This document shows, one piece after another, positions 6,798 through 54,219 of a stretch of DNA of 64,000 nucleotides. The notes under the pieces were generated by a model. It did not search any database and was not told the DNA's origin. It saw only the letters and a list, made by a program, of their open reading frames with translations. Source of the DNA: a phage; assembly GCA_024672315.1 (NCBI GenBank), contig GCA_024672315.1_4714.1, one strand, 5' to 3'. Position 1 is the stretch's first letter. Each line of letters opens with the position of its first letter. Made by a program: the position numbers and the translations under genes.

Positions 6798-7262
6798 TTA
6801 AACCAAAGCTGCGATAACGTCGTTAACATTGCGGCCTCGCAACTCTGCCGCTAAACGAATAACTTCATCCAGGGAACGGTTTGTACGAATCTTGGCCACT
6901 TTCCAATTTTCAGGATACTGTTCGAAGTTAAGCAACCAAGTCATTACCTTTGCTTGTTCCATACCGTTGAGTTTAATTGTCGTGCGCGGATTGGCTTTGA
7001 ACCACTTCTTGCTCAGCTGCGCCATACGGCGAACAGGGTAAGCGTAAGCGCGAGTCCAGTCTTTGGACAGATTGTCGAGTAATTCACAGTAGCTGTTGTC
7101 GTAGTCTTTGTTGATACGACGTAATAACCAGTTGGCGGTCATCTGATAAAGTTTATCATCTTCACGTAACCGCATACCTGCTACTGCTAAATAAATGATA
7201 AGACCTGCGCCCAGGATGAGAGACAGGATGAACAGAATTTGGGTTTCTTGTGCTAAAGTCAT
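6798..7262 (-). CDS. hypothetical membrane protein
   Basis: N-terminal hydrophobic helix (ILFILSLILGAGLIIYLAVAG); start set at ATG 7262 with GAGGA upstream; early-promoter-like motif upstream. Confidence 0.55.
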   Translation of the reverse strand: MTLAQETQILFILSLILGAGLIIYLAVAGMRLREDDKLYQMTANWLLRRINKDYDNSYCELLDNLSKDWTRAYAYPVRRMAQLSKKWFKANPRTTIKLNGMEQAKVMTWLLNFEQYPENWKVAKIRTNRSLDEVIRLAAELRGRNVNDVIAALV

Positions 7263-7355
7263 TTTACTATCCTCGGATTTCATTAGGATTTAATTTCCAA
7301 TATAAGGACAATGTGATATGCCTTATACAGTCGATTGATGTTGTACATCACCTAA

Positions 7356-7363
7356 GTAATATA
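7356..7363 (-). promoter_or_regulatory. putative phiKZ-type early promoter core (TATATTAC on minus strand)
   Basis: Plus-strand CCTAAGTAATATAGCC = minus-strand GGCTATATTACTTAGG, upstream of the 6798..7262 gene. Confidence 0.5.
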
Positions 7364-8915: not shown

Positions 8916-9153
8916 TTAGCAATGGTTGTTAGTTGCTTCTATTTCGTCAAGATACGGTTCTACGTCATCGCCCTCCACGAATTCGTTGAACCAACAGTCA
9001 ATGGTAGAAATAACCGGTGACTGGTGTTCACATTTCTTAGATACCTTAAAAGGTACGTTATTATCCATCATACCGAGTTCGGGTCGAAAACGCCCGAAAT
9101 GTTTCGCAGTCCAAATGTCTGGGACGATATGGTTGTTCATAGCGTCTCCGTCG
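8916..9153 (-). CDS. RNA polymerase beta'-like subunit (nvRNAP-type), 3' exon encoding the catalytic loop
   Basis: In-frame minus-strand translation from 9153 reads DGDAMNNHIVPDIWTAKHFGRFRPELGMMDNNVPF..., matching the bacterial beta' segment DFDGDQMAVHVP...LMMSTNNILSP. The ORF track shows only a 74-aa fragment (8916..9140) because an in-frame stop lies upstream in the intron. Confidence 0.65.
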
Positions 9154-9530
9154 CTGTTTATCGACTATATCTTCATCCTCATTGCGAGGAGTCTCCCGTT
9201 TGGGTCTGTGTTTAACAGAGCCTACTCTACTCGACGTCGCGTCTTTCGATAGTCTGTGAGCACACATCTTAACAAACATTCGTGGATTCCTAAACAGGTG
9301 AATGTTCTTGTTGAGATGCTTCGCTGCGGATTATTCCCGTCCTACCTCTTTTACCGTACCCAGTTCATTACGCTGGCCCTCATCTATGTCACCACGATGA
9401 GTTGGTGTGTAGTCCGATTACAGAAACTTCCCGTCAATTAGAGAGTTTTAACTACGTTCCTGTTACCAGAAACCAGATCCCGACGGTATCAATAAATCAA
9501 CGTAAGTTATTGATTTAATTGAAAAAACTG
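9154..9530 (-). ncRNA. group I self-splicing intron (second intron in the nvRNAP-type beta' gene)
   Basis: Minus-strand core elements in canonical 5'-to-3' order: P-like AATTGACGGGAAG (plus 9427-9439), Q AATCCGCAGCG (9322-9332), R GCTCACAGACTATCG (9247-9261), S AAGATATAGTCGA (9161-9173). Exon nucleotide before the intron is U; intron ends in G at 9154. Only about 9 nt follow S, so no P9 is evident and the exact 3' boundary is uncertain. Confidence 0.6.
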
Positions 9531-9549
9531 AAATCTGCATTATCTAAAT
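9531..9549 (-). CDS. 19-nt micro-exon of the beta'-like gene encoding (Y)LDNADF
   Basis: Minus-strand AT TTA GAT AAT GCA GAT TT; joined to one upstream exon nucleotide (T) and to the downstream exon (C GAC GGA GAC) it gives YLDNADFDGD, restoring the universal NADFDGD Mg-binding motif. Flanked by intron 3' G (9550) and followed by the next intron. Confidence 0.5.
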
Positions 9550-9932
9550 CTTCAGTATGGTTCGCTACGCCATACCCGCACATACGTGCAACTTACGTCT
9601 TTCACGTAAGAAGAGACTATATCTTTCACCCTCAGCATTATCTGGTCGGGGCTCCCATTTCGGCGGTCATCTGACCGGTGGTTTCCCACGCCGCTTGGCC
9701 CTAACGCCCGTAAGCGATAGTCGTTGAGCGCATCTCCGTTCTGGAGACTTCGCTGCGGATTCCCCAATCCTTGCCGCTTTTACCATACCCGAATGATTAG
9801 TTCAGCCCCACGCGCTGTTCCCAGGCGTGGTTGGTGGACAAGGCTCTAAGTAGGTTCCCGCATTAGAGAGTTCCTCGTAACAACATTTCTGCGTTACTGG
9901 GCCTAACGACCCTTTCAAGATCATCACGCTTA
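9550..9932 (-). ncRNA. group I self-splicing intron (first intron in the nvRNAP-type beta' gene)
   Basis: Minus-strand P TAATGCGGGAA (plus 9855-9865), Q AATCCGCAGCG (9751-9761), R GCTCAACGACTATC (9716-9729), S AAGATATAGTC (9615-9625), P9-like hairpin CTTACG-tgaaaga-CGTAAG (9592-9610). The 5' boundary at 9933 is a best guess (exon ends in U, frame gives Tyr when joined to the micro-exon). Confidence 0.65.
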
Positions 9933-11151
9933 ACCCGATGGTGTTATCCTGCGGATCGCGTTTAACCTTGGTGATTTCAAGACATTGGTTACTGCTTCGG
10001 TCAAGTGATGGGTTTCGAACAAAGCCACACACAATCCCATCGAACGGTGTATCAGCAATAAGCTCATCATGCAGCTCGCTCATCATCGGATGATAATTAC
10101 GGACATGTTCCGCAACGAACGCACGTGCTGCTCTTGGTGAATAACCACGATGGAATAACTTGGATTGGATATGTTCTTTATTGGTTAAAGTAAATGGTGC
10201 GTATGGGAAATGCAGATGATAATAACGATGGTTCGCTGTTATCGAACTGATTACGGTACGCGTGGTAAATGGATGTAATGTACCTAATATGTTTTTACGT
10301 GTGATACCTTTCTTCTTACCGATGAACTCATCGAAAATCGCCGCATGGTATTGCAGCAGCTTCAATTGCACTTTCGCCATCCAGTTTTCTTTCTTTCTGG
10401 CGCTCAAAGGTGTTGTTGGATGATAGATACTGTTCAACGTACCGATAGCATCGATCGCACCTTCCATTTTGCTATCCGCATAACGACCGGTTGGCGTATT
10501 CTCGATAACGAACATCATGGCCGCAGGAAAGCTGATATACTGACTGAAGAACTTATCACGATGAATACGGATGAATTCTCGTAGCGTGTCAACTTTCTCC
10601 GTGTTCTTCGGTCCACGTAACGTCGGTCCTTTATACAAGATCTCCATGATGCGATCGAAGTTCTGTATAAAACTATTTACGCCACGTCGTATCCCGAATA
10701 CATCGAATTGCTGCTCCAGATAGTTCTTGAGTTCGATGGGTCGTTTTACATTTGGACGGTAACTGGCATCAATGAGCCACGTCATCGTTTCAAAGCTTTT
10801 GATATTCAACTCGCTTGCCAGCACGAGATGGACCAACGGGTTAATGAACGCATCGATTCCTTCAGGAACGCGCGCCCACACCGTCGAACGAATCTCCTGT
10901 TCTGCTGGGTAGGTTACAACCGTTTTACAGTTTGGACACACCGTGCCGAGCAGCTCACCACGATTGTAGAAACCACAACCACATTGTGGCGTGATATCCA
11001 ACGTATCGCTGGAGTAAACACGGGTGATAAAACTGTTTAATTTCTTCTTCTCTTCGACGACTTTTGTATCGTAATCGTTCAACAAAATCGGCGTAAAAGG
11101 AAGTTCTGCGAGCTGTCTATCGAAACTCACGATATCGAGCATGATGGCCAT
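9933..11151 (-). CDS. RNA polymerase beta'-like subunit (nvRNAP-type, N-terminal part), 5' exon
   Basis: Zn-finger-like CGCG...CPNC near the N-terminus; GKKKGITRKNILGTLHPFTTRTVISS resembles beta' [39 protein letters not shown] resembles NRAPTLHRLGIQAFEP (switch 2). ORF-track runs on to 9802, but the last ~43 codons are judged intron read-through. AGGAGA RBS. Lies immediately downstream of the chimallin candidate, as gp54-gp55 do in phiKZ. Confidence 0.7.
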
Positions 11152-11193
11152 GGGGTATCTCCTACAAATGAAAAAGAACGTTAGGACGTATAA

Positions 11194-11243: not shown

Positions 11244-13139
11244 TTAGAACAGGTTGAATGCCCCACCCATGTTGTTACCGCCAACATTCGGACGATCGCT
11301 ACGTGCGTAGATGTTGCCGGAGATGTTACCCAGACCACGAGCACGTGCTGCCATGTTACCACGAACAGCGGTACCTGCCAGGTGCTGGATGTTCTCAGGA
11401 CGGATGGTGAAGCCAGCATCAGCCGCAGCTTCGATCAGCGCCTGCAGTGCTAACGGATCGAAGTCGTAACGCATTGCCCAGCCGGTTTGTTCCCAGCTAC
11501 CAGACAGAACACGATCAATGATTTCGTGACGAGCGACAACACGCTGAGACATCGTCATATCGGTACGGTCGAAGCTGTCTTCCCAAGCTTCTACGGTATC
11601 CGGGTTAGTGATGTTCATCATGTACAGATCGTCCATATCACGAATATCGTGACGGTGACCATCCTGGTGGTTGTAGTAACCCAGCGGGATACGGTTACCG
11701 GTAGCGTAGACCAGCGGTTGGCCGTATTGATATTTCTTGCTGAAGCAACCCAGGGTAGTATCATCGAAGGCACGGTAGAGTGCTTTGTAACCTTCGGAGA
11801 TTTCTTGAACTTTACCGTCAACGTTGCCCGTAAAGATCTTCTCAGCCGCCGGGATCATACGCAGCAGCCAGCTATACTCGCCTTCTTCCGGTACGTCGAT
11901 AGAAATCAGCAGAGACGGATACAGAACCTGTTGCAGGAACTTGTAAATCTGCTCGTTGGTTTGCGTAGACAGATCCAGCGGTGCAGTCACTTCAGGATCC
12001 AGCACCATCGCCAGAGCACCTGGGTTATGCGGACCAATACCACGAGCCGCGTTGCTGATTAAAGACTGTGCCCATGCCATGCCGCTGTTCAGCGTAGCGA
12101 TGGTACCAATCAGACCCAGCACGAAGCTGTTCGGTGTGAACGCATCCAGCTCCAGCGGGTAAACGCTGGTCATCACGTAACGCGGCTGGTACTGTACAGT
12201 CGGCGGTACCGGATAGCCGTTAACCAGAACAGGGCCTTGGTTGAAGGTCGGGTTCTGCGGGCTGTAGGTCAGGTCAATGTAACCGGTGGTGGCGACCAGA
12301 CGCTGTTGACTATCGTAATCGCTCATCGCTTGACGGATGCGGTTAGAGATAGTTACAGTGATGTCAGAACGCACAGGGTTACCAACAATATCGCTGTCCT
12401 GCATACCGCTGGTGTTGTACTGAACGCTGCTGATTGGCTGATCGCTTGCCATCATGCCCAGGTTGAACTGCGGCAGACCCAGTTTATCACCGAGACGGAT
12501 TTCGATCGCGGTTTGGATTGCGTTATCTGCAGCAGACAGCAGGGTGGTTGCCAGATGCGCAGATTCAGCGGTGATTTCATTGGTCACCACAGCCAGACCA
12601 GCGATACGAACAGTACCGTTAGACTTACCGCCAATAGCTGAATACATTGCCGCCATGACTTCGTTGATGAACGTACCGTTCAGGTTATCAACCCAGGTAC
12701 GCGGTACCAGAATGTTACCATGCGGACCTTGTTCTTCACGACGCGGCAGCGGAGCCAGACCAGCAACCAGCGGCAGGACGTAACCGAAGAAGTGGTTATG
12801 ATCACCAACTTTTGCACCGCTCATAACAACCAGGGTCGGATACGGTACGCTGTACTGGTTCGGGTCAACCGCAACAAAGATGAAGTCGTCTTTGAACTGG
12901 GTATCTTCCAGATATTTCTCCATCAGACGACGGAGATTCAGTACCTGCTCGGAGCCGGTATTACGGCTGATACGACGGCTCAGTGTACGGTTGATCGTAC
13001 GCATCGTATGAGTTACTTTAGGACGGTCGGCAAAATCTGCAGCGGTTTCCAGCGCCTCATCAGCACGTTGTGCGGTGCGGGTTTCAGCTGCACGAATTTC
13101 TACATTATCGTTACCGTTATTACGTACGTCTAAGCCCAT
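11244..13139 (-). CDS. chmA: candidate chimallin (phage nucleus shell protein, ChmA-like)
   Basis: 631-aa ORF with AAGAGGAA RBS and codon usage typical of a highly expressed gene; early-promoter motif about 73 nt upstream; sits directly upstream of an nvRNAP-type beta' gene (phiKZ gp54-gp55 arrangement) and about 12 genes from the PhuZ homolog. Assignment is by size and synteny, not by a recognised motif. Confidence 0.55.
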   Translation of the reverse strand: MGLDVRNNGNDNVEIRAAETRTAQRADEALETAADFADRPKVTHTMRTINRTLSRRISRNTGSEQVLNLRRLMEKYLEDTQFKDDFIFVAVDPNQYSVPYPTLVVMSGAKVGDHNHFFGYVLPLVAGLAPLPRREEQGPHGNILVPRTWVDNLNGTFINEVMAAMYSAIGGKSNGTVRIAGLAVVTNEITAESAHLATTLLSAADNAIQTAIEIRLGDKLGLPQFNLGMMASDQPISSVQYNTSGMQDSDIVGNPVRSDITVTISNRIRQAMSDYDSQQRLVATTGYIDLTYSPQNPTFNQGPVLVNGYPVPPTVQYQPRYVMTSVYPLELDAFTPNSFVLGLIGTIATLNSGMAWAQSLISNAARGIGPHNPGALAMVLDPEVTAPLDLSTQTNEQIYKFLQQVLYPSLLISIDVPEEGEYSWLLRMIPAAEKIFTGNVDGKVQEISEGYKALYRAFDDTTLGCFSKKYQYGQPLVYATGNRIPLGYYNHQDGHRHDIRDMDDLYMMNITNPDTVEAWEDSFDRTDMTMSQRVVARHEIIDRVLSGSWEQTGWAMRYDFDPLALQALIEAAADAGFTIRPENIQHLAGTAVRGNMAARARGLGNISGNIYARSDRPNVGGNNMGGAFNLF

Positions 13140-13211
13140 TTGGGATTCCTCTTTTCTTAAACTTTATTAAATGACGTCATTGAATCAGCTTCTACTCGCT
13201 CATTCACCTAG

Positions 13212-13219
13212 GTAATATA
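13212..13219 (-). promoter_or_regulatory. putative phiKZ-type early promoter core (TATATTAC on minus strand)
   Basis: Plus-strand CCTAGGTAATATAACCC = minus-strand GGGTTATATTACCTAGG in the 254-nt divergent intergenic region upstream of the chimallin candidate. Confidence 0.55.
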
Positions 13220-13393
13220 ACCCTGAAATTTTTTTCAATATTGGTGTAACCGCATTGAACGATATAAACCCCTAGGCGAACGCTGCCGAGAAGCAACATT
13301 CTTTCTACATATAATCAGGATATGTCTGTAAACTTTTACTTCTCTTATTGAGAGTAATGTCATATCCGTTTACCATCTTCTTACGGAGTTCGT

Positions 13394-14488
13394 ATGTTTC
13401 GTGTTTTAAATAACCTCCCGCGAACATCATCGGGTGTGCAACCCGTCCCTCAGAAAGACTATCTAATACGCGAAGTTCAAAGAAACCTACAGACAATCCA
13501 GAACCACTATCAAGGTTTTACCTTCGCGGTTCAGAGCGATCACATCCTTGCGTTGCTGCTCGCACAGCTCCCTATGAGATACGACATCTCAGTACAAACT
13601 TACTACGACATGATTCTCGATCTTACCCCAGAATTGGGTAATCGTGTCAAGTTGACAACATCAAGATACGCGGGTAAGTTATTCGACGGTGCTTTCTATC
13701 CGGGATTGCACGAAGCTATTATTGCAACCGGTGAAAGTCGTCTTATTTCACGTGACGTTCTTGATAACTGGCGTAATTGGTCACCAGTTAGAATCGTGAC
13801 GCATCCATACGCAAATCTTCGTTACATTCCTCTTCACCGAAAGCAGATTGAAGAAGGACGAGGTTTTGCGGTTATTATGGTTGATGTGCCTTTATTAGCG
13901 CTACAGTATCGAATGTGGTCTTTGGTCATGGGTCATAACGACGACGGTAAATGGGTGGTTAAAGAACCGGTTACAAGCTTCCTTGCGAGTTTTCCGTTGG
14001 TTAACGCATTATACTCACACAACGATGTTGTTATACGCAATCGTTGTTTATGGATATCTCCGGCTAAGAATCCACTCAAATCACCAATTTACGTTAACGA
14101 CCTTGATAACGTATTCAGCCAAGTCGTTCTGTCCGTACAGCATCATTTATTACGAAGAAGACGAAGCTACACCGACATGCTTAAACAGATACCGAGTTTA
14201 TACGGAGATCAGTACCAAGCAACCCGAATGGGCTACACCGTCGATCTTCGACAAACACGATGGGCAAGGGATCTGGGTTGTCTGTCATTATGGCAACAAC
14301 TCGTCACATTGCAAAACGTATCTGAAAGCGTCGGGTTCAGCAGTCAAATCGATAATGACCTGTATCGTGCTGCCGACCGAAGTCTAAAAGAAGGTAACTG
14401 GGAGTCCTCTCCGTTACCTGGCGATTTAAGACGTGAAGTTATTGCACAGGTTGCCGACCTCTTAAAAATTCTTCCTGCTGGTGCATAA
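13394..14488 (+). CDS. hypothetical protein
   Basis: 364-aa plus-strand ORF divergent from the chimallin candidate; GGAG RBS; followed by a hairpin at 14508-14539. Confidence 0.55.
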   Translation: MFRVLNNLPRTSSGVQPVPQKDYLIREVQRNLQTIQNHYQGFTFAVQSDHILALLLAQLPMRYDISVQTYYDMILDLTPELGNRVKLTTSRYAGKLFDGAFYPGLHEAIIATGESRLISRDVLDNWRNWSPVRIVTHPYANLRYIPLHRKQIEEGRGFAVIMVDVPLLALQYRMWSLVMGHNDDGKWVVKEPVTSFLASFPLVNALYSHNDVVIRNRCLWISPAKNPLKSPIYVNDLDNVFSQVVLSVQHHLLRRRRSYTDMLKQIPSLYGDQYQATRMGYTVDLRQTRWARDLGCLSLWQQLVTLQNVSESVGFSSQIDNDLYRAADRSLKEGNWESSPLPGDLRREVIAQVADLLKILPAGA

Positions 14489-14554: not shown

Positions 14555-16708
14555 TTACTCTGTGGTTTCTCGCTTCGGTAAATAACTTGCTGCAATGTCT
14601 TGGGCTAACAATGTATTGTTTTTATTCGAGATGAAAATACCGTAACTTTCCATTAACGCGTAATACGAACGCACGAGCGTAGAGATCAATCGACGAATAT
14701 CCATACCTTGAATAAAGATATCGGGAAGCCCGGAGGCTTCGATCACCGGTAATGGTATCGTTAAGTTGCTTATCGTTTTCTTATCGTTACGTACAATCCA
14801 ATCACGGAAACGTTGTTGTAACCCTTTATCCTCCCAGGAATCAATCCAATCGTTAAGAAGCGTTTTGTTCTTCGTCGCCAACGGCACACGAACCCCAACA
14901 TAGGGTGGTTCCTGGCAATGGCCGTACGATTGAGCAAACACCTCTTCCCACATATCGTAAGACTGTTTCGTTACTGCAACATGCGGTTTCACTTTAACAC
15001 GTGTTAAGAAATCAGGATCACCACGTTTCATGGACTCAACGATTTCGTTTTCTAACGAGATAATATCGTCAAGAACCAATCGAATGCTGATCTTCTCATT
15101 ACGTAACAGCTTATCCATGATACCGCACATCATGCGTTCAACACGTTTGACGATCATTTTTGGTGCTGACGCATCGCGCATAACCGGACCTTTCAATTCC
15201 AGCTTCGGTGGATTGATAGGAACCCCTTCACGCATGGTCATGTAACCGTAATAGTTTTTACCCATCGAGGTTAACGACAGAATCAAGAACATATATTCGT
15301 TCTTCATTTCCATCACGTACATATGCTCTTTCGCCACACCGATATTACCAGAACACATCGCCATCAGATGGACTGTAATCTGCGTAACCAGATAGATAAG
15401 CGTGTTTGCTAAGCGCGTCGAAACTGGATTGATCTCCATATTTCCAAATCGCCACTGAACCCACTCCTGGCAGGTAAACACTGTCGAGTCGGTATCAGAC
15501 AACACACCCACTTCACGGATTGCTGATGGGAAAGCATAAACGCCAGCCGGTTGATTCTCGGTACGCCAGAACGCCATAATCAAATCAGCGTAGCTTTGGA
15601 TACGCTGTAGCATTAATTTTGTCGTTGCTGCGGTAAGACGATAACCAAGTTCATTTCCTTTTTCTAGCGCTACGTAAATCGCCTCCCCATTCAAGAACTC
15701 CGTGCATTGTGCTGTAATCCAAGCAACCGTGTTGTTATCCATGGAAGCAATAATGGCTTTAGCCTCTTCCATCGTTTCAACAGGTTCGGATGCCAGTTCA
15801 CATAACGAGTCAAGAAAATCTCGAACAAATTCAGGATTAAGCTCACGTAACGAGTACAGGTTATTGCTGTACATGTAGCAGGCGCGTTCTAATGGCGTTA
15901 AACCGGTAATTAGCTCCCGGATGGTCAGCTCTTTCTCTGGGTCGAAAGTATATCGATGCAAGCATTTCGATACGTTAGCCCAAACCTCTTCCGGCGTAGG
16001 GTAATGCAGTTTGTATTTTACCATTACCTGCTCAATGGCTTTACGATCGCTATTACGAACAATGCTCACGATGTTTTCAATTGCGATATCACAATCGTAA
16101 TAATGGAAATTGCCCGCAAGGAAGCGTTCGTTGTTCGCATTGGCTGAACCTGAAGCACAGCGACATGTTGTCGTTAAGCTTGGATGCGCAATCGGATTAT
16201 AAAAAGGGTTGAACTTGGACGCCTGGGTTCCTGACAAACTGTTGTTATCTAACTTGGTGTTGGTTTGTCGCTTATCGTGTAACTCAGCTTCATCTTTACG
16301 TCCGTGTGCTTGTGCTATCGACATTTGTTTCTTTTGTTTCTTACGCAACTTACCGTTTTCAACCGCAAAGTCGCTTAGCACACTGGAGCGTGTCTCACGT
16401 GGATAACAGTTAGCCCACACCGGCGTGATAATTAAATTATTTTCTTTAATATCGTTGAAGTATTGGCTGAACTTGATGACTTCTTTTTCACGATTTCCTT
16501 CGGTACGCTGTGTTAATACCAGGCAGTCGGGATCAACCATCCCGTATTTTCCACCAGGACGAACCGTTTCAAGAACAAACTGCAACGCTTCCTGCTGAGA
16601 TATCCCACGCATGCGCATTAAGAATAGGGTATAATCCTGTACCGCTTCTTTGGTCATATCCAACGTACGACCATATCCGTTTTCATCGTAAAAGAACGGA
16701 TTTTCCAT
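14555..16708 (-). CDS. hypothetical protein (717 aa)
   Basis: Long uninterrupted ORF; contains a DTDS-like tetrapeptide (VGVLSDTDSTVF) but no recognisable ordered polymerase motifs, so no function is assigned. Confidence 0.5.
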   Translation of the reverse strand: MENPFFYDENGYGRTLDMTKEAVQDYTLFLMRMRGISQQEALQFVLETVRPGGKYGMVDPDCLVLTQRTEGNREKEVIKFSQYFNDIKENNLIITPVWANCYPRETRSSVLSDFAVENGKLRKKQKKQMSIAQAHGRKDEAELHDKRQTNTKLDNNSLSGTQASKFNPFYNPIAHPSLTTTCRCASGSANANNERFLAGNFHYYDCDIAIENIVSIVRNSDRKAIEQVMVKYKLHYPTPEEVWANVSKCLHRYTFDPEKELTIRELITGLTPLERACYMYSNNLYSLRELNPEFVRDFLDSLCELASEPVETMEEAKAIIASMDNNTVAWITAQCTEFLNGEAIYVALEKGNELGYRLTAATTKLMLQRIQSYADLIMAFWRTENQPAGVYAFPSAIREVGVLSDTDSTVFTCQEWVQWRFGNMEINPVSTRLANTLIYLVTQITVHLMAMCSGNIGVAKEHMYVMEMKNEYMFLILSLTSMGKNYYGYMTMREGVPINPPKLELKGPVMRDASAPKMIVKRVERMMCGIMDKLLRNEKISIRLVLDDIISLENEIVESMKRGDPDFLTRVKVKPHVAVTKQSYDMWEEVFAQSYGHCQEPPYVGVRVPLATKNKTLLNDWIDSWEDKGLQQRFRDWIVRNDKKTISNLTIPLPVIEASGLPDIFIQGMDIRRLISTLVRSYYALMESYGIFISNKNNTLLAQDIAASYLPKRETTE

Positions 16709-21097: not shown

Positions 21098-22078
21098 TTA
21101 GAAAAGCAAGAAACCGCTATTCTTCGCTTCCGCTACAGTTTCGTCACCAACTTTCGGTGCCTGTTGACGTGCGTTACGATGTTCGATGTAACGTTTCGCT
21201 TCGTCCGCGATCTGTTTGATAATACCCCCTAAACGATCGGTACTTAAAACAAACGACGTCGCTTCACGAATCGGGCTGCTTTCAGGCACAAAACCATCAC
21301 AGCTGTAAATAGCGCTAACGCCCATGACTTTGGTCGCGTCTTTCGGATAAAGCGTACAGAAAGCAATCGGGCTATCGTTCTCTTTCGTCCAATCGTATCC
21401 CATGAACGTATTCAGTTCGGTGATCGTTGGTTCCAAACCGGTAACACGCGGATGGTTTAAGAAGTTTTCCAGGTCGGCGCTGTCAAGACGACGGTTCTCG
21501 CCAGAAAACAGAACACAAAGCTGGCTAATAACAACCTGCACGTCCAGGTTGACATCCTGCTCCGATTTCCCATTTTCGCCATTCATGTGATAGCTAACAA
21601 TCACTGGACGTTTCAACCCTTCTGCGGCTGCCATCAGTCCTTTGAAGGTGCGATCGGCGTTGATCGTCTGACGCTCATCATCGAACGAGGCAACGATACA
21701 ACACACCACACGTTCACCGCGTTCCAGCAGATTAGCAACCAACGCAGGACCGGCAACAGAACCTGAACCACCGCTCAAACTAAAGACCACGATATTAAAT
21801 TTACCTGGCGTATGCTTATTGAGAATACCTGGGATTTGTGAACAGATCAGCTCAGCGTTCTCATCACGCTTCTTACCGGAACCGTCTAGCTCACGACCAG
21901 CTGCATCTTTAAAGATGTAAATATGATCGTCGCCCAGTGTGCTATCGCGTAGGTTAGCGCGGCTGGTATCAACATACGTCATGCTGTGTAATCCTTTCGC
22001 GACTTCGCCTTCAAATGCTGAGCCGATTTCGCCACCACAACCACCGACAGCCCAAATATGTACTTGGTTCTCTTGCAT
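21098..22078 (-). CDS. phuZ: PhuZ-like phage tubulin (tubulin/FtsZ-family GTPase)
   Basis: 326 aa; N-terminal AVGGCGGEIGSAF resembles the FtsZ GGGGxN motif; FSLSGGSGSVAGP resembles the tubulin signature GGGTGSG; N-A-D in a T7-loop-like position; size matches PhuZ; AGGAG RBS. Confidence 0.8.
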   Translation of the reverse strand: MQENQVHIWAVGGCGGEIGSAFEGEVAKGLHSMTYVDTSRANLRDSTLGDDHIYIFKDAAGRELDGSGKKRDENAELICSQIPGILNKHTPGKFNIVVFSLSGGSGSVAGPALVANLLERGERVVCCIVASFDDERQTINADRTFKGLMAAAEGLKRPVIVSYHMNGENGKSEQDVNLDVQVVISQLCVLFSGENRRLDSADLENFLNHPRVTGLEPTITELNTFMGYDWTKENDSPIAFCTLYPKDATKVMGVSAIYSCDGFVPESSPIREATSFVLSTDRLGGIIKQIADEAKRYIEHRNARQQAPKVGDETVAEAKNSGFLLF

Positions 22079-37460: not shown

Positions 37461-39533
37461 ATGAGGCTTAAGAATAGCACGCCTCGCGCGATTTTTACGG
37501 GCTTTAAAGAGGGTCTTACCACGGATCCGGTTACAGCCCCAGAGATCACGCCCATTCACCTCCCGTATGTTTTCATTCAGGGTGGTCGTGGTAAAGAGGA
37601 CACCTTGCTGTTAACAGGGGACGCCCTGTCTACAGTCTATGGTGAAGATATGCTGAACTACCGCAGTAAGTACGCTTCTCCGGCAACACTGATTGCTCGC
37701 CAGGCGGCTTCTACAGGTAGCGCGATCTTCACAAAACGTTTGGTTGCGCCGGATGCAACGGCAGCACGCATCCGTATCGGTGTTGAAGTGGTCGCCGATA
37801 AACTGGTCGTTTACCAGCGTAACGCTGACGGGTCCTTTATGAAGGACACCGATGGCAACAAAATCCCTGACGGCGATAAAACCGTTGACGGGGTGAAAAT
37901 GCGTTGGATTGTTAACCACGACAAAGATGCCGTAGCGCCTAACGCCTTCGGTAAAGATGAAGTGGTTATCGGACAAATGACCGCAGCTGATGGTACCCAG
38001 AGCAACTACTATCCTATTCTGGATGGAATGGTGAGCTGGCGTGGTGCTGAAGGGGACAACATCGGCTTACGTCTGGAAGCACCGACCGCGCTGAGCAGCA
38101 ACCCTACCCGTACCGATATCATCGAACGCATCGGTGCTTTCCTGTACCGCATTCAGTTCGTGGAACGTAAGTCTTCACGTACTGCGCCGACGGTCATTCG
38201 TACGATCAGCGGCATGGAACAAGAAACCTTCGCGTTGCAGGAAGGTGTTATCCAGCCTGATGACGAAACCGATCTGTCCTTCGGTAAAGTGGTCGTTGAT
38301 GCCTACGAGTATAATGAGACGGGTAACACCCCGATCTTTGCTCCGATGGATCAGATGCATCTTTATCAGAAGAACATCGATGAAGTCGTCAAGAAGCTGT
38401 ACGAATCTGAAAGCAAAGTTAACAAAGATCTGTTAACCGACGTTGAATTCGTCGAAGGTCAGATGAACATCTTCACCGGTGTCGATTACAACGGCATCCC
38501 TTATCAAACCATCGAAGTTCTCGATGCGGATCAGGGCGGCGTCATCTTTGATGGTACCAGCACCTTCTACGCAATTGATGGTAGCGACGGTGACGTTGAC
38601 TGGGATACCTTCGACGCGTTAGCGAAACAGCAGTTCGAATCGTTCGGCAGAATGGGCGAAGATCTGGAAGACATGGCTTTCTATCCGTTCTCCATCGTGT
38701 ATGACATTGGTTACAAAGTCGACACGAAGAAAGCGATGGCAAACGTCTTGTCTCTGCGTCCGGATGTCATGATCATTGCGTCAACCCATACCTGGAAGGG
38801 TGTGGAACTGAATGTCGATGAAGAAAGCTCCATGGGCGCAATGCTGCGTAACTACTATCGTCTGCATCCAGAAAGCGTGCTTTACAATACCCCAGCTTGC
38901 CGTGCTGCTGTATTCATGCAATACGGTGAAAGCATCGAAGCACCAAGCCTGGGTAAAGTTCCGTTGACGCTGGAAGTTGCTAATAAACTGGCAACTTACA
39001 TGGGTGCTTCGGATGGTGTTATCCGTGGTACCCGCATCGATAACAACCCTGGTAACGTTGTCACAACGATGCGTAAAATCAACAAGACGTATCGTAACGC
39101 AACGGTCCGTGATCGTGATTGGGAAAACGGCTTGAACTATGTTCAGACCTACAACCGTAATTCCAACTTCTTCCCGGCTTGGGGTACGATCTACAATAAC
39201 GACCGTTCGGTATGGCGTTCGTTGATCAACGTGATCATCGGTTGCGATCTGACTCGTGTCTGCTATCGTCTCTGGGCAGAAACCACCGGTACTACAGGAA
39301 TGGATGAAACGCTGTTCCTGAAACTGATGGGCGAACGCTTCCTGGAATACACCACGGGCCGTTACAACGACCACGTGACTGTTAAGGGACGTTTCTACCT
39401 GGATAAAGAAGACGGTTATAACGGCTTCAGCTATCACGGCGATATCAGCCTGATCGGCGATCCAGGCATGACCGTGGGTACGTTTACCATCACCGGGCTG
39501 CGTCGTAACACCGAAGCAGCAGAAGCGGCGTAA
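37461..39533 (+). CDS. putative contractile tail sheath protein
   Basis: 690 aa, the size of phiKZ-type sheath proteins; AAGGAGAG RBS; biased codon usage; immediately followed by a ~300-aa gene. Call is by size and gene order. Confidence 0.55.
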   Translation: MRLKNSTPRAIFTGFKEGLTTDPVTAPEITPIHLPYVFIQGGRGKEDTLLLTGDALSTVYGEDMLNYRSKYASPATLIARQAASTGSAIFTKRLVAPDATAARIRIGVEVVADKLVVYQRNADGSFMKDTDGNKIPDGDKTVDGVKMRWIVNHDKDAVAPNAFGKDEVVIGQMTAADGTQSNYYPILDGMVSWRGAEGDNIGLRLEAPTALSSNPTRTDIIERIGAFLYRIQFVERKSSRTAPTVIRTISGMEQETFALQEGVIQPDDETDLSFGKVVVDAYEYNETGNTPIFAPMDQMHLYQKNIDEVVKKLYESESKVNKDLLTDVEFVEGQMNIFTGVDYNGIPYQTIEVLDADQGGVIFDGTSTFYAIDGSDGDVDWDTFDALAKQQFESFGRMGEDLEDMAFYPFSIVYDIGYKVDTKKAMANVLSLRPDVMIIASTHTWKGVELNVDEESSMGAMLRNYYRLHPESVLYNTPACRAAVFMQYGESIEAPSLGKVPLTLEVANKLATYMGASDGVIRGTRIDNNPGNVVTTMRKINKTYRNATVRDRDWENGLNYVQTYNRNSNFFPAWGTIYNNDRSVWRSLINVIIGCDLTRVCYRLWAETTGTTGMDETLFLKLMGERFLEYTTGRYNDHVTVKGRFYLDKEDGYNGFSYHGDISLIGDPGMTVGTFTITGLRRNTEAAEAA

Positions 39534-39548
39534 TGAGAGGAGTCCATA

Positions 39549-40439
39549 ATGCGTCCTGATAATACCCTACTCGGTGAACAGGGTGTTGGTGCTCTTAGCA
39601 ACGCGGCTATGGTCGATATTCGTGCGGGTGCCCAAAACGGGTACATCAGCAATATCGGTACGTACGTTGCTAACGCCAACTACATTCCGAACCAAATGTT
39701 CTGTCTCCTGCTGGAGGCACCACGTGGTTTCAACTATCTGCCTAACCCGGATGTACAGATTGGTTATCTGAAGGCGTTGGTAGAAGAAGTTGCGCATTCG
39801 ATTACCGGTCTGCAACGCGGATTGGAAGTTGAATTCGTTAGCGTCCCGGTTTCTGGTTCCGGTGAAATCCAGGAAGAAGTCTCTGACGTTAAACGTCCTC
39901 GCTCTAACCCGACTTTCGGGATCTATGAGAAAGAAGGTCGTTCCGTTAGCTACTTCCTGGAACAATGGATCACGTATCTGTTGATGGATCCGGATGCCAA
40001 ATATCCGATGTTGTCGTCTATCGTATCCACCGGTGGTCCAACCGACCTGCTGGCGGATTATCGTAGCGCAACAATGCTGTTCGTTGAGCCAGACCGTCAA
40101 CACAAGAAAGTGGTTAACGCCTGGCTGTGCACGAACATGATGCCTCACGGTACCGGTGACTGGACATCACGTCGTAACAAGAACGATGCGCCAAACGTGG
40201 TAGAATTGAGCATTCAGTTCACCGCGTTAACACAGACCAACTACGGCGTGCGTGCTTTTGCACAACGTCTGCTGGATAAGATGAACCTGCTTAAAGTGAA
40301 CCCGGATTTCCGTCCGGCTTATCTGAGCGACATCGATCCGGCTGTGGCAGCGCAGAAGGTTGGCTACACCTTCGACTTTGATAACAACGATACCTTTGAG
40401 GTACCGAATACTTATCAAAACGTAACACCTCGCGTGTAA
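39549..40439 (+). CDS. putative tail tube protein
   Basis: 296 aa directly downstream of the sheath candidate with GAGAGGAG RBS; followed by a strong hairpin. Confidence 0.45.
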   Translation: MRPDNTLLGEQGVGALSNAAMVDIRAGAQNGYISNIGTYVANANYIPNQMFCLLLEAPRGFNYLPNPDVQIGYLKALVEEVAHSITGLQRGLEVEFVSVPVSGSGEIQEEVSDVKRPRSNPTFGIYEKEGRSVSYFLEQWITYLLMDPDAKYPMLSSIVSTGGPTDLLADYRSATMLFVEPDRQHKKVVNAWLCTNMMPHGTGDWTSRRNKNDAPNVVELSIQFTALTQTNYGVRAFAQRLLDKMNLLKVNPDFRPAYLSDIDPAVAAQKVGYTFDFDNNDTFEVPNTYQNVTPRV

Positions 40440-41569: not shown

Positions 41570-42049
41570 TCAGTCTTTCAGCAGCTCAGCTGCATACGCA
41601 CTGATGTTGTCGCGAATATGCTTAACCTGAGTTGTTGGGAAAGATTTCTTATACGCGGTGGTCAGGCGTCCGTAAACCTGTTTCTTCTCGTTAGAGCCGA
41701 AACCAACTTCAGCGCTGCGTTGAACGGTTGCGGACACAACGTCTTTGCCCAGCGGCAGGGTTACAGAAACAACGTCAACCTGTTTGTTATCCGCCATGAA
41801 CTGCGCGCCAACGCGGCCAACCGCCAGACCGTGAGCCAGACCGATATCGGTGGTCAGTTTCTGTGCTTTTTCCAGGATTTCTTTTTCTTCCGGTGTTACC
41901 AGAGTACCCAGGAAATCACTGCCTAGCTTCTGGCTACCAGATTCGTCCAGTTTAATACCAGCGGCGATTTTATCAGAAAGAGCCTGAACTTCCGGACGTA
42001 CGTTAGAAGTGGTTTCAGTCGCTACGGTGGTTTCTACAGCTTCAGACAT
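41570..42049 (-). CDS. hypothetical protein, candidate abundant early protein
   Basis: 159-aa ORF with strongly biased codon usage, GGAG RBS and an early-promoter motif about 120 nt upstream. Confidence 0.55.
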   Translation of the reverse strand: MSEAVETTVATETTSNVRPEVQALSDKIAAGIKLDESGSQKLGSDFLGTLVTPEEKEILEKAQKLTTDIGLAHGLAVGRVGAQFMADNKQVDVVSVTLPLGKDVVSATVQRSAEVGFGSNEKKQVYGRLTTAYKKSFPTTQVKHIRDNISAYAAELLKD

Positions 42050-47458: not shown

Positions 47459-50400
47459 TTATTTAGCGTCGTTAAAGTAAATATCAACAGCTCGTTCCGT
47501 TGCGTAGAGGAGACCAAGATTCACAGTCCCAACCACTTCCGGTGAACCGATGATACGGTTAGCGATACTGGTGCCACTGAAGATAGCATCAAGGGTGTGC
47601 CCGTCTTCGGTTTTGTTCACACCATGACCCACGGAAGAGACAACGGATTTCGCTTGTGCTGCGAAGGTACCTTTATCACCCATCCCCGCACCAAGGTCGT
47701 AACGCATGAAAATACGGATAGCGATCTGGTTCTCGCCTAACGGATTACCGTCTATTCTCACGTTACTGTTATTGATACGCCCTGTTGTTGCCTCGCTGAG
47801 TTTCAGTTCCTTGACGCGTTTAGCTCGCGCTTTATCCGCTTCACCGACGAGCGCCGCCATGGTTTCGCTCATATCCTCAATCTGAGCGCGGTACAGTACA
47901 TCGATCTGTACAACTTCACCATGAACATCAGCACGTGGGTTATACTGACTCATACGACGTAATGCTTCAACGGCTTCCTGACTCTCATCACTCAGATCAG
48001 TTGCGATCGGTTCTTCCAGTGTTGCAAGAATCGTTCGCGGTTCAACGTGGTCGCCGATTTTCACAAGACCACGAATGTTGAGATGGGCGTCAACGATAAG
48101 CGTACGGCTCTTAATCGATGGTGTTACGAGACGATCAGCAAGATTGTCGAAGATATACGAACTGTCCTCGTGAGTCTCTGGAATATCCAGAATACCGACA
48201 AGAGACAGAACACCTGCGCGCCAAACAACCTGACCCGGGTTCCACCAATCGCGTTTAAAATAAAGACGATGGAAAACCACCACATCCTGATCCTTAACGC
48301 GATCCCCGACTTTATAATCGGTAATGAGATCATGGGGATAATACTTACCTGGTCCTTTCCCGATTATCGTACCGAGCTGGAAAACCTCTTCCCCTAACTC
48401 TGGATCGTCGTATTGTATCGTAAGCGCGGTTTTGGTGACCTTCTTCACAACACCATCGCCTTGGGCAGCTGCTGCGAAGAGCTTACCAACACGATGCGCG
48501 ATGACAGTCTCACCACCTGTACGCCACGGTTGTACATCGTAACCTTCAGCAGCAATCATGCGGTTGTGTTGGATCCCGACAAAGACCAGACGTTTTCCAT
48601 CGTCGCGGTCTACAGCCGGAACAGCTAACGCTGACGTACTCATTACCGATGAAATGCCGTCTGTCTTTTCATCGAATGGTCGTGTTTCACCATATACCGA
48701 CACGATATTAGCATTAGGTGCGAGGTAAGCAGAAATACCTACGTCCCCGCTATCTTTCGTACCCTCTGACACAATACCAACATCGGACTTGTCGTATTCA
48801 CGATCGCGTGCGCGTCGAAGCGATGTCTTTGAACGACCTCCGATACCGGTCATCGTCGCTTCTTCACCCTGCTTGATATCCAACATCGGGTTGGTTTCAT
48901 CAATCACGATGGAAGCACTGTCGTCGAGAATCTGGTTCCAGACACTTACCGGACTGATTGATATTTTCTGGCGATTTCCTTGACTGCTGTTCTCATTCTG
49001 ACGAATAGCACCAACCAGGTCCTTATACACCAATTCAGCGAACTTATCGTACGTTTTAAAACGTTGGTAGTTCACATCGTTCGTGTTAGGAGCCCAATCA
49101 TCCAGAAGCAGTTCAACAGCACGCAGTAACAACATGGCGAAATCGGTAGGTTCTCCCATGTTCTGTAGCAACGTACGGCTTACCGGATCAACGAAAAGAC
49201 GCTCCATGAGTTCAAGTTCGCGTAAATGACGAACCTTAAGTCCAGCACCATCGACAACGTTAAAATAGATATCTCGATTGTCAAAAGCGCCGCGAGCGTA
49301 ACCGATGTAGTTACGGTATTCGTTAAACCCACCCAGCAACAACGTCGTCATGCGATCGTCTTTACTGAAGATCAAACTTTCGTCATCAAAGCTCACCGCG
49401 AATTCATCGGGTGCTAGACCCATACGAGAACCGCGAGGTACCGTACGATAGTTCGCTTTAAGATGTTCTAATAACGGGGTAAGTCCACCCAGATAACTTA
49501 GAACAACACCGACCGGAATACGTACACCCATGAATTCAAGATCGGCGGCTTCGATCGGCATCTTAGCCGCATTGATACCGAAGAAATCAGGGAACGTCCC
49601 TACAGGTGTTGGTGTTTGTCCTGACTGACAGATATAGAGCTGATTGCGTTTATCGATTGCTAAGAATTCACCCAGCGTGTTACGCGCAAACGTCAGGAGC
49701 CCTTCGGCTAACTGTTCGTTGAACCGATCTTCCCCGATGAACTCCGGCAATGTCTTTGTATCGAGACGTATATCCCAATCAGCAAATTGGATTTGGGTAT
49801 AGTTGCGTGCAAGCACAGCGAAGTAATACGGAACTTTGACGGCCGGATCAAAGACGTTACCGCGTTTCAACGTGGTTAAGGGTGAGGATTTATCGTAATA
49901 CATCGCCGTAAGTTGACGTGTTAGCCAACGACCGGCGTTATTAACGACGCGCTCTGAACGTTTAACAAACACCTTACCGTAGGCGGTACTCAACGCAACT
50001 TCAGATGACGATACCTTTCTAATAGGTTTATCAACACGTTGTTTACGCATCCGGTATTTGATGCCGTTAACGACATAAATGCCATCCTTACGAACCTTCG
50101 GCAACATCACCGGGAACGTGGTCGGGACACCGCCTACGGGAGCCAGTTTAATCGTGATGACTTGATAATCCCCCATCACGTCAACAACATCTTCGACTTT
50201 ATATCCCGTAACAGGGTAACCCGCCTGCTGTACCGCAACAACAGCGGCTGCGATGTCCTTTTGCATTACGTGTTCAACGTAATGTTTATCCCACACCGCA
50301 AGCGTCGATTTACACAGGCTCTTATCGACGATAACATCCGCTTCCGGCATAACCTTTGCAGGAGCTAATTTCGCGGCTTTTGGTTTAACTTCAACATACT

Positions 50401-51805
50401 CGGCAAGTGTTAATCCAGAACCGTCGGGTGCTTCGATTTCATGGATGGCGTCAGCATTACGCATCGCTGCTTTATATTGGACACCGCTTAACTGACCTGC
50501 ATCGGCCAGATCGCTCGCGCGCACCAACACCGCATCCGATAACGACTGAATATACTCACCGTGTGTTTTTGGTAACGTTGTCGCGTCAAAGACATCAACC
50601 TTTTCTTCTTCGGTATCGTCGGTAACGACTTCGAAGAGATCGTCGGTAATGTCCTGATCTTCATCAGGTTGGAAATCCGGTTGTACTTCTACCCCAGGTA
50701 CTTCACGGACATCTTCGAACGAGCGTTCTACAATGGCGTTCCACGCATCAGCGTCATCGTCTTCATCCGACCCGCCGACCAACTCAGCTTCTAACTCATC
50801 GGGATCAAGAACGGTAGCCAGATCCTCACCGTTAGGAAGCACGACGTCGCGATCATCGTACTCCGCATCCGGGCTGTCCGCAAGAATATCTCGCTCCTGA
50901 CGAAGAACCTGTTCCTCTTCTTGTTTCTGTTCTTCTTCATTCGCGCTCTGCGACCACAGACGTGTTACCGCCATCATCCAACGACGTTGGAAGGTTTCAA
51001 GTGTCGTTTTATCGAGTTCTTCCCCTTCCTTTACAAGTCCGGTACGCCATTCTTCCAGCAGGCCGAGATTCAGCGTAAAGAAGTACACGCCGTCTGTGAA
51101 TACAACGTTAAGCTTGTCCAGCGTGGCTCTGTCTAACGAAGCCATCGTGCTGTTCTCACGATCGGTTCCCAGCCAGCGGAAGAAGTCAAAGAACGACAGC
51201 TCCTCCGGTGTGGCGAAATTCATGAGGTTGTTACGGGTCGGTGCCTGTTGCGTGGTACGCATCAACGAAATCTTCGGCAATGTTGACGGTATACGGAACA
51301 ACAAAAAGTGTTGGCGATCGCTTTGCTGTGCGATTTCGTTGGCTTTCGACCAAATTGTTTTACGTACATTGAACCATTCATCATACCAACGGGTGAGCGT
51401 TGGACGATAAATGTACATGTGGTTAAGATGCGCGTAGTTAGCAACGATCTGAGCGTTGATGTTTTTCTCCACCGTGCTTAGATCGGTAACCAAACGAAAA
51501 CGACGATGTGATGCACGATAATCCAATTTCGCTCGTGGGAGTTGGAATCGTTGATCGCGTCGAGGTGCACCCTGTTTGGTTGCGAGATCATCAGCAAACG
51601 AAATCCATAGTTGAGCATTTTCTTTACTCAGCATGTATTCGTTTTCTGGAGGACCTATCAATGAAGGATCCGTTGCGATGTAATGATAGACAGCATAACG
51701 CGGCAGCTGCAATAGCTGCACTAAACGTAATCTTGGTGATAGTAACTCTTGGTAGCGTCTGACACCAAACTGTCGGTAGTAATCAAGGTATTTAAGTTTT
51801 GCCAT
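47459..51805 (-). CDS. multisubunit RNA polymerase beta-like subunit (vRNAP-type, N-terminal part of beta)
   Basis: 1448 aa; TGIGGRSK...VGIVSEGTKDSGDVGISAYLAPNANI resembles the beta fork-loop region; GDKGTFAAQAKSVVSS...TEDGHTLDAIFSGTSIANRIIG resembles the GDKxxxRHGxKG...DENGxPVDIVLNP region; the protein ends about 60 aa after this, with no GEME-type C-terminal region, consistent with a split beta. GGAG RBS. Large acidic insertion in the N-terminal half. Confidence 0.75.
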   Translation of the reverse strand: MAKLKYLDYYRQFGVRRYQELLSPRLRLVQLLQLPRYAVYHYIATDPSLIGPPENEYMLSKENAQLWISFADDLATKQGAPRRDQRFQLPRAKLDYRASHRRFRLVTDLSTVEKNINAQIVANYAHLNHMYIYRPTLTRWYDEWFNVRKTIWSKANEIAQQSDRQHFLLFRIPSTLPKISLMRTTQQAPTRNNLMNFATPEELSFFDFFRWLGTDRENSTMASLDRATLDKLNVVFTDGVYFFTLNLGLLEEWRTGLVKEGEELDKTTLETFQRRWMMAVTRLWSQSANEEEQKQEEEQVLRQERDILADSPDAEYDDRDVVLPNGEDLATVLDPDELEAELVGGSDEDDDADAWNAIVERSFEDVREVPGVEVQPDFQPDEDQDITDDLFEVVTDDTEEEKVDVFDATTLPKTHGEYIQSLSDAVLVRASDLADAGQLSGVQYKAAMRNADAIHEIEAPDGSGLTLAEYVEVKPKAAKLAPAKVMPEADVIVDKSLCKSTLAVWDKHYVEHVMQKDIAAAVVAVQQAGYPVTGYKVEDVVDVMGDYQVITIKLAPVGGVPTTFPVMLPKVRKDGIYVVNGIKYRMRKQRVDKPIRKVSSSEVALSTAYGKVFVKRSERVVNNAGRWLTRQLTAMYYDKSSPLTTLKRGNVFDPAVKVPYYFAVLARNYTQIQFADWDIRLDTKTLPEFIGEDRFNEQLAEGLLTFARNTLGEFLAIDKRNQLYICQSGQTPTPVGTFPDFFGINAAKMPIEAADLEFMGVRIPVGVVLSYLGGLTPLLEHLKANYRTVPRGSRMGLAPDEFAVSFDDESLIFSKDDRMTTLLLGGFNEYRNYIGYARGAFDNRDIYFNVVDGAGLKVRHLRELELMERLFVDPVSRTLLQNMGEPTDFAMLLLRAVELLLDDWAPNTNDVNYQRFKTYDKFAELVYKDLVGAIRQNENSSQGNRQKISISPVSVWNQILDDSASIVIDETNPMLDIKQGEEATMTGIGGRSKTSLRRARDREYDKSDVGIVSEGTKDSGDVGISAYLAPNANIVSVYGETRPFDEKTDGISSVMSTSALAVPAVDRDDGKRLVFVGIQHNRMIAAEGYDVQPWRTGGETVIAHRVGKLFAAAAQGDGVVKKVTKTALTIQYDDPELGEEVFQLGTIIGKGPGKYYPHDLITDYKVGDRVKDQDVVVFHRLYFKRDWWNPGQVVWRAGVLSLVGILDIPETHEDSSYIFDNLADRLVTPSIKSRTLIVDAHLNIRGLVKIGDHVEPRTILATLEEPIATDLSDESQEAVEALRRMSQYNPRADVHGEVVQIDVLYRAQIEDMSETMAALVGEADKARAKRVKELKLSEATTGRINNSNVRIDGNPLGENQIAIRIFMRYDLGAGMGDKGTFAAQAKSVVSSVGHGVNKTEDGHTLDAIFSGTSIANRIIGSPEVVGTVNLGLLYATERAVDIYFNDAK

Positions 51806-51988: not shown

Positions 51989-52507
51989 CCTTGTCTTCGC
52001 CTCAGGTCGCTACGCTGAGACCGCCTGCGTGGATACGTACATCACAGGCTGCTTGCACTTTCATGCAAGAGGAGACTATATCAAACCGTCAGCTTCACCT
52101 GCTACGGTAACCTACACTTCGAAGACGCTTGTCCTCTACAGGGTGGTAAATCCCTTAGTCGTTGAACCTGCGTTGTTTCACATTCTTGTTTGCAAGAATG
52201 CCGTATTGCTACGCAACAACCAGGCTGCTGATTGCCCATTATCACGCACCTTAGCACCGCTTACGCGGCTTTTCTTTCAGCCTAAGCCTCCGTGGGAGGT
52301 AGTGCATCTCAACTGTTGTTTCCGCCTTTCGGCACCTCATGGGTTGTTGAGCTTTAGGGGTTCCCAGCAATTCGTAGGTTTTTCAAGCACTCCCTTTCGG
52401 GAATACCGGACCAATTCAGTTAGTAAACAACATTATTACCATCCCTCATTCTTAAGGGTTAATTTTTTAAAATGATAAAATTAATGTGTTTTTGGGCTAA
52501 CTCGAAG
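51989..52507 (-). ncRNA. group I self-splicing intron in the vRNAP-type beta' gene
   Basis: Minus-strand P CGAATTGCTGGGAA (plus 52361-52374), Q AATCAGCAGC (52225-52234), R GGTTCAACGACTAA (52155-52168), S GATATAGTC (within 52072-52084), P9-like hairpin CTTGCA-tgaaag-TGCAAG (52052-52069). Exon nucleotide before the intron is U (52508); intron ends in G (51989). Splicing gives ...YLAGLGGD|FDGDTV.... Confidence 0.7.
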
Positions 52508-53974: not shown

Positions 53975-54219
53975 GGAGACACTCCTCTTTACCACCACCG
54001 GCTGCGGCGGTATCATCTGAACACACGAGAGACGTAATGGGTGATGGCGTCACCCATCGCTTCCTTGCCTGATGCCAGGAAGTTATTAGGTTACGTACCG
54101 GCTTGATAAAATCAAGCAGGCGATGTGTGAAGTTACGCTTCAACATTATCAATGCCGAAGGTAAGCTTCGTGCATCACGTTCCAACGTAACATGGGAACG
54201 TATCGAACTGGAGGTATAC

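Follow-up and report, generated by a model that had tools for sequence, protein, structure and literature searches.

A chimallin gene of a Goslarvirus and the intron-split nvRNAP beta' gene beside it

Does the long open reading frame (ORF) at 11244..13139 encode chimallin (ChmA), the protein of the phage-nucleus shell, or is it a large structural gene such as the one for the major capsid protein? A sequence-only reading of the window (the whole 64,000-nt stretch of phage DNA analyzed here) had favored chimallin on the grounds of size, context, codon bias, and an early-promoter motif, and these features proved sufficient to call the gene without a homology search. Our analysis leaves hardly any doubt that the ORF is the chmA gene of a Goslarvirus, one of the Chimalliviridae, with E. 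coli and related enterobacteria as its hosts, and we found no evidence contradicting this identity. The ORF lies on the minus strand, which the earlier reading had not specified, and runs from an ATG through the expected 631 codons to a stop. An open frame of 631 codons at 48% GC is far above chance expectation, and on the plus strand this interval is riddled with stops; the four plus-strand ORFs inside it (109 to 191 aa) were set aside as antisense artifacts. The N terminus, MGLDVRNNG..., is shared with the characterized Goslar orthologue.

In a megablast search, the sole match to the gene was Goslar HOV27_gp246, annotated "nuclear shell protein," the alignment covering 100% of the gene at 96.5% identity. 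The encoded protein is 97.5% identical to Goslar chimallin, with differences at 16 of 631 residues and no indels. Goslar ChmA is gp189 in GenBank (MK327938) and HOV27_gp246/YP_009820873.1 in RefSeq, and its cryo-EM structures are available as PDB entries 7SQT, 7SQU, and 7SQV. A phmmer search against all PDB chains aligned residues 1 to 631 with 7sqt_A, "Chimallin" (E = 0, 1400 bits), and also returned PhiPA3 PhuN (8fne, E = 1.8e-22), 201phi2-1 chimallin (7sqq, E = 1.6e-11), and a further chimallin chain (8igg, E = 1.6e-11). The gapless identity to 7sqt_A, together with the matches to three other solved chimallins, indicates that the protein very probably adopts the chimallin fold. Pfam family PF25677 (Chimallin_Phikzvirus) matched residues 19 to 596, covering profile positions 10 to 592 of 627 and scoring 98.3 bits where the curated cutoff is 27 (E = 4.1e-28), and PHROG 4795, "nuclear shell protein," matched with an E value of 1.8e-54. 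The sequence-only reading had proposed a profile comparison with known chimallins as a check on its call; PF25677, PHROG 4795, and 7sqq all matched, so an objection based on lack of similarity fails. Homologues were detected by tblastn in 111 of 50,697 phage records. Among the matches listed, these belonged to jumbo phages (records of 223 to 322 kb) of Pseudomonas, Erwinia, Ralstonia, Burkholderia, and other hosts, several were annotated "nuclear shell protein," and all except Goslar had <30% identity to the protein. Family PF25677 is shared with 201phi2-1 gp105 (7SQQ) and PhiPA3 gp53/PhuN (8FNE), and the 631-aa length is shared with gp105, whereas identity to these two proteins is only about 19 to 23%. 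The Goslar and 201phi2-1 chimallins have a common fold and lattice, with an r.m.s.d. of 1.8 Å (PMC9365700); in Goslar-type chimallins, CTS2 is shorter and has another binding mode than in 201phi2-1 (PMC9365700).

The Pfam, PHROG, and PDB searches with the protein returned chimallin or nuclear shell protein only and no capsid family, and the major capsid protein of Goslar is gp41, a separate gene encoded elsewhere. The proposal that the ORF encodes an HK97-fold major capsid protein, which the earlier reading had already judged the poorer fit, is therefore refuted at the sequence level, and the probability that we assign to it is negligible. What the gene has in common with a capsid gene is generic, namely that it is large and highly codon biased in a jumbo phage. 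This bias is as strong as had been claimed: among 53 crude gene calls in the window, chmA has the minimum ENC (34.7; mean, 50.4; SD, 5.3) and the second-highest E. coli CAI (0.635; mean, 0.292; SD, 0.096; z = +3.6), the CAI weights being those of the Sharp-Li E. coli set. CTG accounts for 89% of its Leu codons and CGT for 95% of its Arg codons. The structural genes with raised CAI in the window are those for the tail sheath (37461..39533) and a virion protein (39549..40439), and chimallin has been detected in virion preparations solely as carried-over nucleus fragments.

The gene neighborhood (Table 1) also agrees with the chimallin assignment made by homology. The next gene downstream of chmA, starting at 11151 on the minus strand, encodes a homologue of phiKZ gp55, an nvRNAP beta' subunit (PDB 7OGP_A, E = 1.5e-59). 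The proposed position of chmA directly upstream of an nvRNAP-type beta' gene was thus correct, as was the comparison with phiKZ gp54-gp55 (chimallin, then the N-terminal subunit of the nvRNAP beta'), since chmA and the gp55 homologue follow each other in the same order. The solved phiKZ beta' chain is likewise named as a fusion, PHIKZ055/PHIKZ056.1. In the window, the beta' gene contains two group I introns with a 13-nt micro-exon between them. In the Goslar annotation, chmA and PhuZ are separated by 11 genes, in line with the distance of about 12 genes given in the sequence-only reading and with the published Goslar numbering of ChmA as gp189 and PhuZ as gp201 (PMC9891218). Core genes of the Chimalliviridae, namely the gp55 homologue and the divergent DNA polymerase of PF20286, accompany chmA, with PhuZ as an accessory gene. 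For two neighboring proteins, of 364 and 159 aa, Pfam and PDB searches gave no match. Over its first 25 kb, the window is 97.5% identical to Goslar, and two further stretches are 96 to 98% identical, which identifies the phage as a close Goslarvirus relative. The locus is like that of Goslar in chmA length (631 aa), neighboring genes, upstream motif, leader, and 3' hairpin, and unlike it in the 16 chimallin substitutions and in the intron content of the adjacent beta' gene.

Table 1. Features at and around chmA, with window coordinates
Feature	Position	Strand	Basis or remark
Beta' exon 3, C GAC GGA GAC GCT ATG... = DGDAMN... to stop	8916..9153	-	Goslar equivalent: "hypothetical protein" HOV27_gp185
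Group I intron A, 377 nt, no ORF	9154..9530	-	RF00028, 47.8 bits, E = 1e-10, below gathering score
Micro-exon ATAATGCAGATTT, 13 nt, encodes (Y)NAD(F) of NADFDGD	9531..9543	-	Deduced splice
Group I intron C, 365 nt, follows exon U, ends in G	9544..9908	-	RF00028, 30.8 bits, E = 1.2e-5, below gathering score
Beta' exon 1, ends ...MILKG + T of Tyr codon (U9909)	9909..11151	-	phiKZ gp55 homology
Long hairpin from chmA stop codon	11167..11245	-	Folding, -41.1 kcal/mol
Shine-Dalgarno AGAGGA	13147-13152	-	About 7 nt before chmA ATG
5' leader, 65 nt	13140..13204	-	Direct sequence reading
Early-promoter motif TTTCAGGGT-TATATTAC-CTAGGTG, A-rich run ahead	13205..13228	-	Consensus match; promoter candidate
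Divergently transcribed conserved gene, 364 aa, Goslar gp245 homologue	13394..14488	+	PHROG 3938, 4.3e-53
Divergent family B DNA polymerase	14555..16708	-	PF20286, 1.6e-204
PhuZ tubulin	21098..22078	-	PHROG "tubulin PhuZ," 2.9e-68; Pfam

The early-promoter motif noted by the earlier reading is present upstream of chmA. Its core, TATATTAC (13212-13219, minus strand), ends 73 nt upstream of the ATG and stands in the extended form AAAAAAATTTCAGGGT-TATATTAC-CTAGGTG, which reproduces the conserved blocks of the phiKZ, 201phi2-1, and OBP early-promoter consensus (PMC7058600). The published consensus is TATATTAC for phiKZ and ..WTTTRARR_BTATATTACDWHDGTG for 201phi2-1 (PMC7058600). The bare 8-mer occurs four times in the window compared with 2.15 expected, a count that 17 of 100 shuffles reach and that is not significant alone; the case for an early promoter is instead made by the strand, intergenic position, and shared flanks of the copies. 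All four are on the minus strand and have flanks of the form WWWW-TTYNASG-NN-TATATTAC-YTNNNTG. Three are intergenic when judged by a crude ORF set spanning 92.6% of the window, and the fourth (2077-2084) is so only if the start of Goslar gp175 is carried over by mapping coordinates. In the literature, such motifs mark early genes transcribed by the virion RNA polymerase, and it is presumably this polymerase, injected from the virion, that uses the chmA copy. ChmA is among the early proteins made in Goslar infection (PMC10541120).

At the other end of the gene, the hairpin that begins at the stop codon has a z score of -6.05, and 0 of 200 shuffles folded as well. The inner stem is 10 bp of G/C (GGGAGGGAGG/CCUCCCUCCC), a U-run at 11171-11179 follows the outer stem, and the hairpin is likely an intrinsic terminator or an mRNA-stabilizing 3' structure. 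A scan for sigma-70 promoters and simple terminators around chmA gave chance-level, irrelevant matches and missed this hairpin, which was later found by folding. The simplest reading is that chmA forms a largely self-contained early unit made up of promoter, 65-nt leader, coding sequence (CDS), and terminator. The promoter motif, the extreme codon adaptation, and the 3' hairpin are sequence signals compatible with early, abundant expression.

The promoter motif, leader, and 3' hairpin are identical in six Goslarvirus genomes, and Goslar and four other Goslarvirus contigs have the same 121 nt upstream and 96 nt downstream of the CDS as the window, bar one base at -113. The chmA CDS differs from that of Goslar at 3.5% of positions and the flanking regions are near-identical; dN/dS for the gene compared with Goslar is 0.11, indicating purifying selection. 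These values bear on the possibility that chmA is a decaying or nonfunctional chimallin copy in a bacterial assembly, an idea that might be drawn from the recording of the exact protein from E. coli assemblies under the name "hypothetical protein [Escherichia coli]" (NCBI HCJ5982503.1/HCJ8148490.1). We regard decay as very improbable given that the frame is full length without a single indel relative to Goslar, that its dN/dS is low, and that conservation of its promoter, leader, and 3' hairpin is perfect. Moreover, the contigs carrying it are about 234 to 240 kb, the size of a complete phage genome, megablast found no chmA copy in complete E. coli RefSeq genomes, and the records fit the 237 lytic Goslarvirus genomes reported from bacterial assemblies (PMC12768965).

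The intact chmA identified here is not new in itself. The exact protein is found on 31 contigs of up to 240 kb, and the 90% cluster to which it belongs counts 249 members, drawn from metagenomes and from assemblies of E. coli and Salmonella. Goslarvirus has grown from 1 to 237 genomes through sequences found inside bacterial assemblies (PMC12768965). Since the exact sequence is public and this expansion has been published, the window chmA is a known protein in a reported lineage, and its orthologue group has already been characterized structurally, cytologically, and genetically, so the chmA call adds nothing new. Considering that the exact protein is still labeled "hypothetical protein" in HCJ5982503.1, records of this kind could be re-annotated.

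The 16 substitutions from Goslar to the window protein are G38D, Q39R, R81Q, A167S, A177V, A326V, T338S, Y436F, K439N, E441D, E443K, R445Q, V461T, L474Q, H488Y, and V621G. None falls at about residues 43 to 56, 590 to 611, or 622 to 631. A similar picture emerged from the 16 Goslarvirus chimallin variants of the 90% cluster, all of which are 631 aa long. Their alignment has 39 variable columns, with none at about 43 to 56 (the N-terminal segment, NTS), 598 to 611 (most of CTS1), or 622 to 631 (CTS2); residues 596 and 597, at the edge of CTS1, do vary. The boundaries of NTS, CTS1, and CTS2 in Goslar-type proteins are approximate, as they were moved over from 201phi2-1 numbering. Within those boundaries, the N-terminal segment and the lattice-linking segments CTS1 and CTS2 all appear to be present in the window protein.

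Substitutions are concentrated elsewhere: residues 430 to 450 hold 5 of the 16 differences from Goslar, clustered at 436 to 445, and this surface may therefore behave unlike that of Goslar. It could be supposed that the window protein is a functional chimallin whose variable patch at 436 to 447 confers partner-binding or immune-evasion properties different from those of Goslar. Three of the five differences, which lie inside 10 residues, change charge (K439N, E443K, and R445Q), the same positions vary among other Goslarvirus alleles, and local dN/dS in the 430-to-450 patch is about 1.1. This ratio derives from tiny counts, 5.5 nonsynonymous versus 1.5 synonymous changes, and relaxed constraint on a surface loop explains the pattern equally well; we consider such altered properties unlikely. 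It is also conceivable, though doubtful enough that we would not expect it, that Goslarvirus chimallin in general bears a fast-evolving surface patch at 436 to 447 along with smaller variable clusters at 76 to 90 and 455 to 474; a host sensor, or co-evolving phage proteins associated with the shell, could be exerting diversifying selection on the patch. In that case, an interaction surface of the phage nucleus would be marked out by the natural variation in ChmA.

What the window chimallin does can be outlined from work on the Goslar protein and 201phi2-1 gp105, carried over to this allele by orthology. In Goslar-infected E. coli, GFP-ChmA forms the shell (PMC9891218), and cryo-EM and in situ lattice structures of chimallin have been published (PMC9365700). 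When Goslar ChmA is knocked down, plaquing falls by a factor of at least 10,000 and infection stops at the early vesicle stage (PMC10541120). The chimallin lattice encloses phage DNA and separates transcription from translation (PMC9365700; PMC12908238). On this basis we infer the timing and level of expression, the self-assembly, and the localization of the window chimallin. The injected virion RNA polymerase would transcribe chmA early from its TATATTAC-type promoter, and host ribosomes would translate the mRNA very efficiently, aided by the E. coli-tuned codons. The product would form homotetramers joined via the N-terminal segment, and the tetramers would assemble into a square lattice via two flexible C-terminal segments. 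Closure of the lattice would then give rise to a phage nucleus around replicating phage DNA, from which host nucleases and ribosomes would be excluded.

A side observation on the adjacent beta' gene holds more scientific content than the chmA call. The 449-aa ORF downstream of chmA reads into an intron, and the break in the beta' gene falls at the catalytic motif NADFDGD, where two group I introns flank the 13-nt micro-exon (Table 1). Intron boundaries were derived from BLAST breakpoints relative to Goslar, sub-threshold Rfam matches, and reading of the sequence; at the Rfam gathering threshold, the sole match in the window was an intron at 52052-52436, and the beta' introns were seen only in E-value mode. 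At the splice junctions, every 5' exon ends in U and every intron ends in G. With the splice deduced here, both the reading frame and the NADFDGD motif are restored, and the predicted mature mRNA would read ...AAAGGGT/ATAATGCAGATTT/CGACGGAGAC... across the junctions. The predicted spliced product is 497 aa long, reads ...MILKGYNADFDGDAMNNH..., and differs by 1 residue from its spliced Goslar counterpart. Its alignment with phiKZ gp55/56.1 runs through the junctions and improves the E value from 1.5e-59 to 1.1e-74.

Goslar beta' differs in its introns: the first site is empty (no intron C), intron A carries the HNH endonuclease gp186 (1440 nt), and a different 13-nt micro-exon and intron B (355 nt) follow. 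Between window intron A and the 5' 375 nt of the gp186-carrying Goslar intron, identity is 95%. The four introns proved too divergent for a helpful MAFFT alignment; compared globally in pairs, they had identities of 49 to 57%, except for the 95% between the two A introns. We considered whether window intron C is Goslar intron B and dropped the idea, which is unsupported because the two are 56% identical.

Intron content was compared across six Goslarvirus genomes, namely the window, Goslar, and those labeled L003 to L006. The window has introns C and A, Goslar has A with HNH and B, L003 has A and B, L004 has C only, L005 has A only, and L006 has C and an A intron that carries a 320-aa HNH-type ORF only 28% identical to gp186. 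Occupancy thus differs in all six genomes: 26 nt of sequence coding for NADFDGD contain three insertion sites, filled in six combinations. The gene offers a compact natural setting in which to study how introns and homing endonucleases turn over in nucleus-forming phages that circulate together. The chimallin protein is identical across L003 to L006, and the chmA DNA of L003 is the same as that of the window, yet the two genomes have different intron sets 100 nt away.

The gene for the nvRNAP beta' subunit, the homologue of phiKZ gp55, is interrupted in the window at its catalytic NADFDGD motif, where two group I introns enclose a micro-exon of 13 nt (see the table). The splice sites are predicted; the splice deduced from the sequence would restore both the reading frame and the NADFDGD motif, and alignment of phiKZ gp55 with the deduced spliced product improves to an E value of 1.1e-74. 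We also compared the beta' locus of Goslar (L001 13989..17277) and of four other Goslarvirus contigs (L003 to L006). The gene has three intron sites (C, A, and B) inside 26 nt, and each of the six genomes compared had a different combination: C+A; A(HNH)+B; A+B; C alone; A alone; and C+A carrying a different HNH ORF. These intron sets differ even between genomes whose DNA for the chimallin gene, chmA, is identical. In the Goslar RefSeq record, only one intron is annotated at this locus, and exon 3 is labeled a hypothetical protein.

A third group I intron lies in the stretch that separates ORF 52481..54016 from ORF 47459..51805; the corresponding Goslar genes carry the annotation "RNA polymerase beta subunit." Since Goslar is ~1.5 kb longer over the interval spanning this intron, the window seems, as at the beta' gene, to be without an insert that Goslar has there.

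Features of the window, with strand and context
Feature	Position	Strand	Context
nvRNAP beta' gene	8916..11151	minus	adjoins chmA
Group I intron (site C)	9544..9908	minus	one side of micro-exon
Micro-exon	9531..9543	minus	between the two introns
Group I intron (site A)	9154..9530	minus	other side of micro-exon
Third group I intron	52052..52436	minus	Rfam RF00028, 63.6 bits (above gathering score)
Extended early-promoter motif	2077-2084	minus	~57 nt upstream of Goslar gp175-equivalent start
Extended early-promoter motif	7356-7363	minus	ends 73 nt upstream of ORF 6798..7283
TATATTAC early-promoter motif	42173-42180	minus	124 nt upstream of 159-aa protein gene
159-aa protein gene	41570..42049	minus	Goslar HOV27_gp214 homologue; PHROG 9746
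364-aa gene	13394..14488	plus	between chmA and DNA polymerase gene

Within chimallin, substitutions relative to Goslar clustered in residues 436 to 447 (Y436F, K439N, E441D, E443K, and R445Q), at positions also variable in other Goslarvirus alleles. Local dN/dS in this patch was ~1.1, on very small counts, versus 0.11 for the whole gene.

Among the further early-promoter copies, the one preceding ORF 6798..7283 (161 aa) has the same spacing as that of chmA. The 159-aa protein, whose gene follows another copy, had no match in Pfam or PDB searches; its codon adaptation (CAI, 0.649; ENC, 34.9) is as high as that of chimallin, and it is probably another early, very abundant protein. The 364-aa gene, the lone plus-strand gene in its interval, is kept in Goslar (gp245) and belongs to PHROG 3938, with a weak match (7.3e-11) to a "virion structural protein" PHROG.
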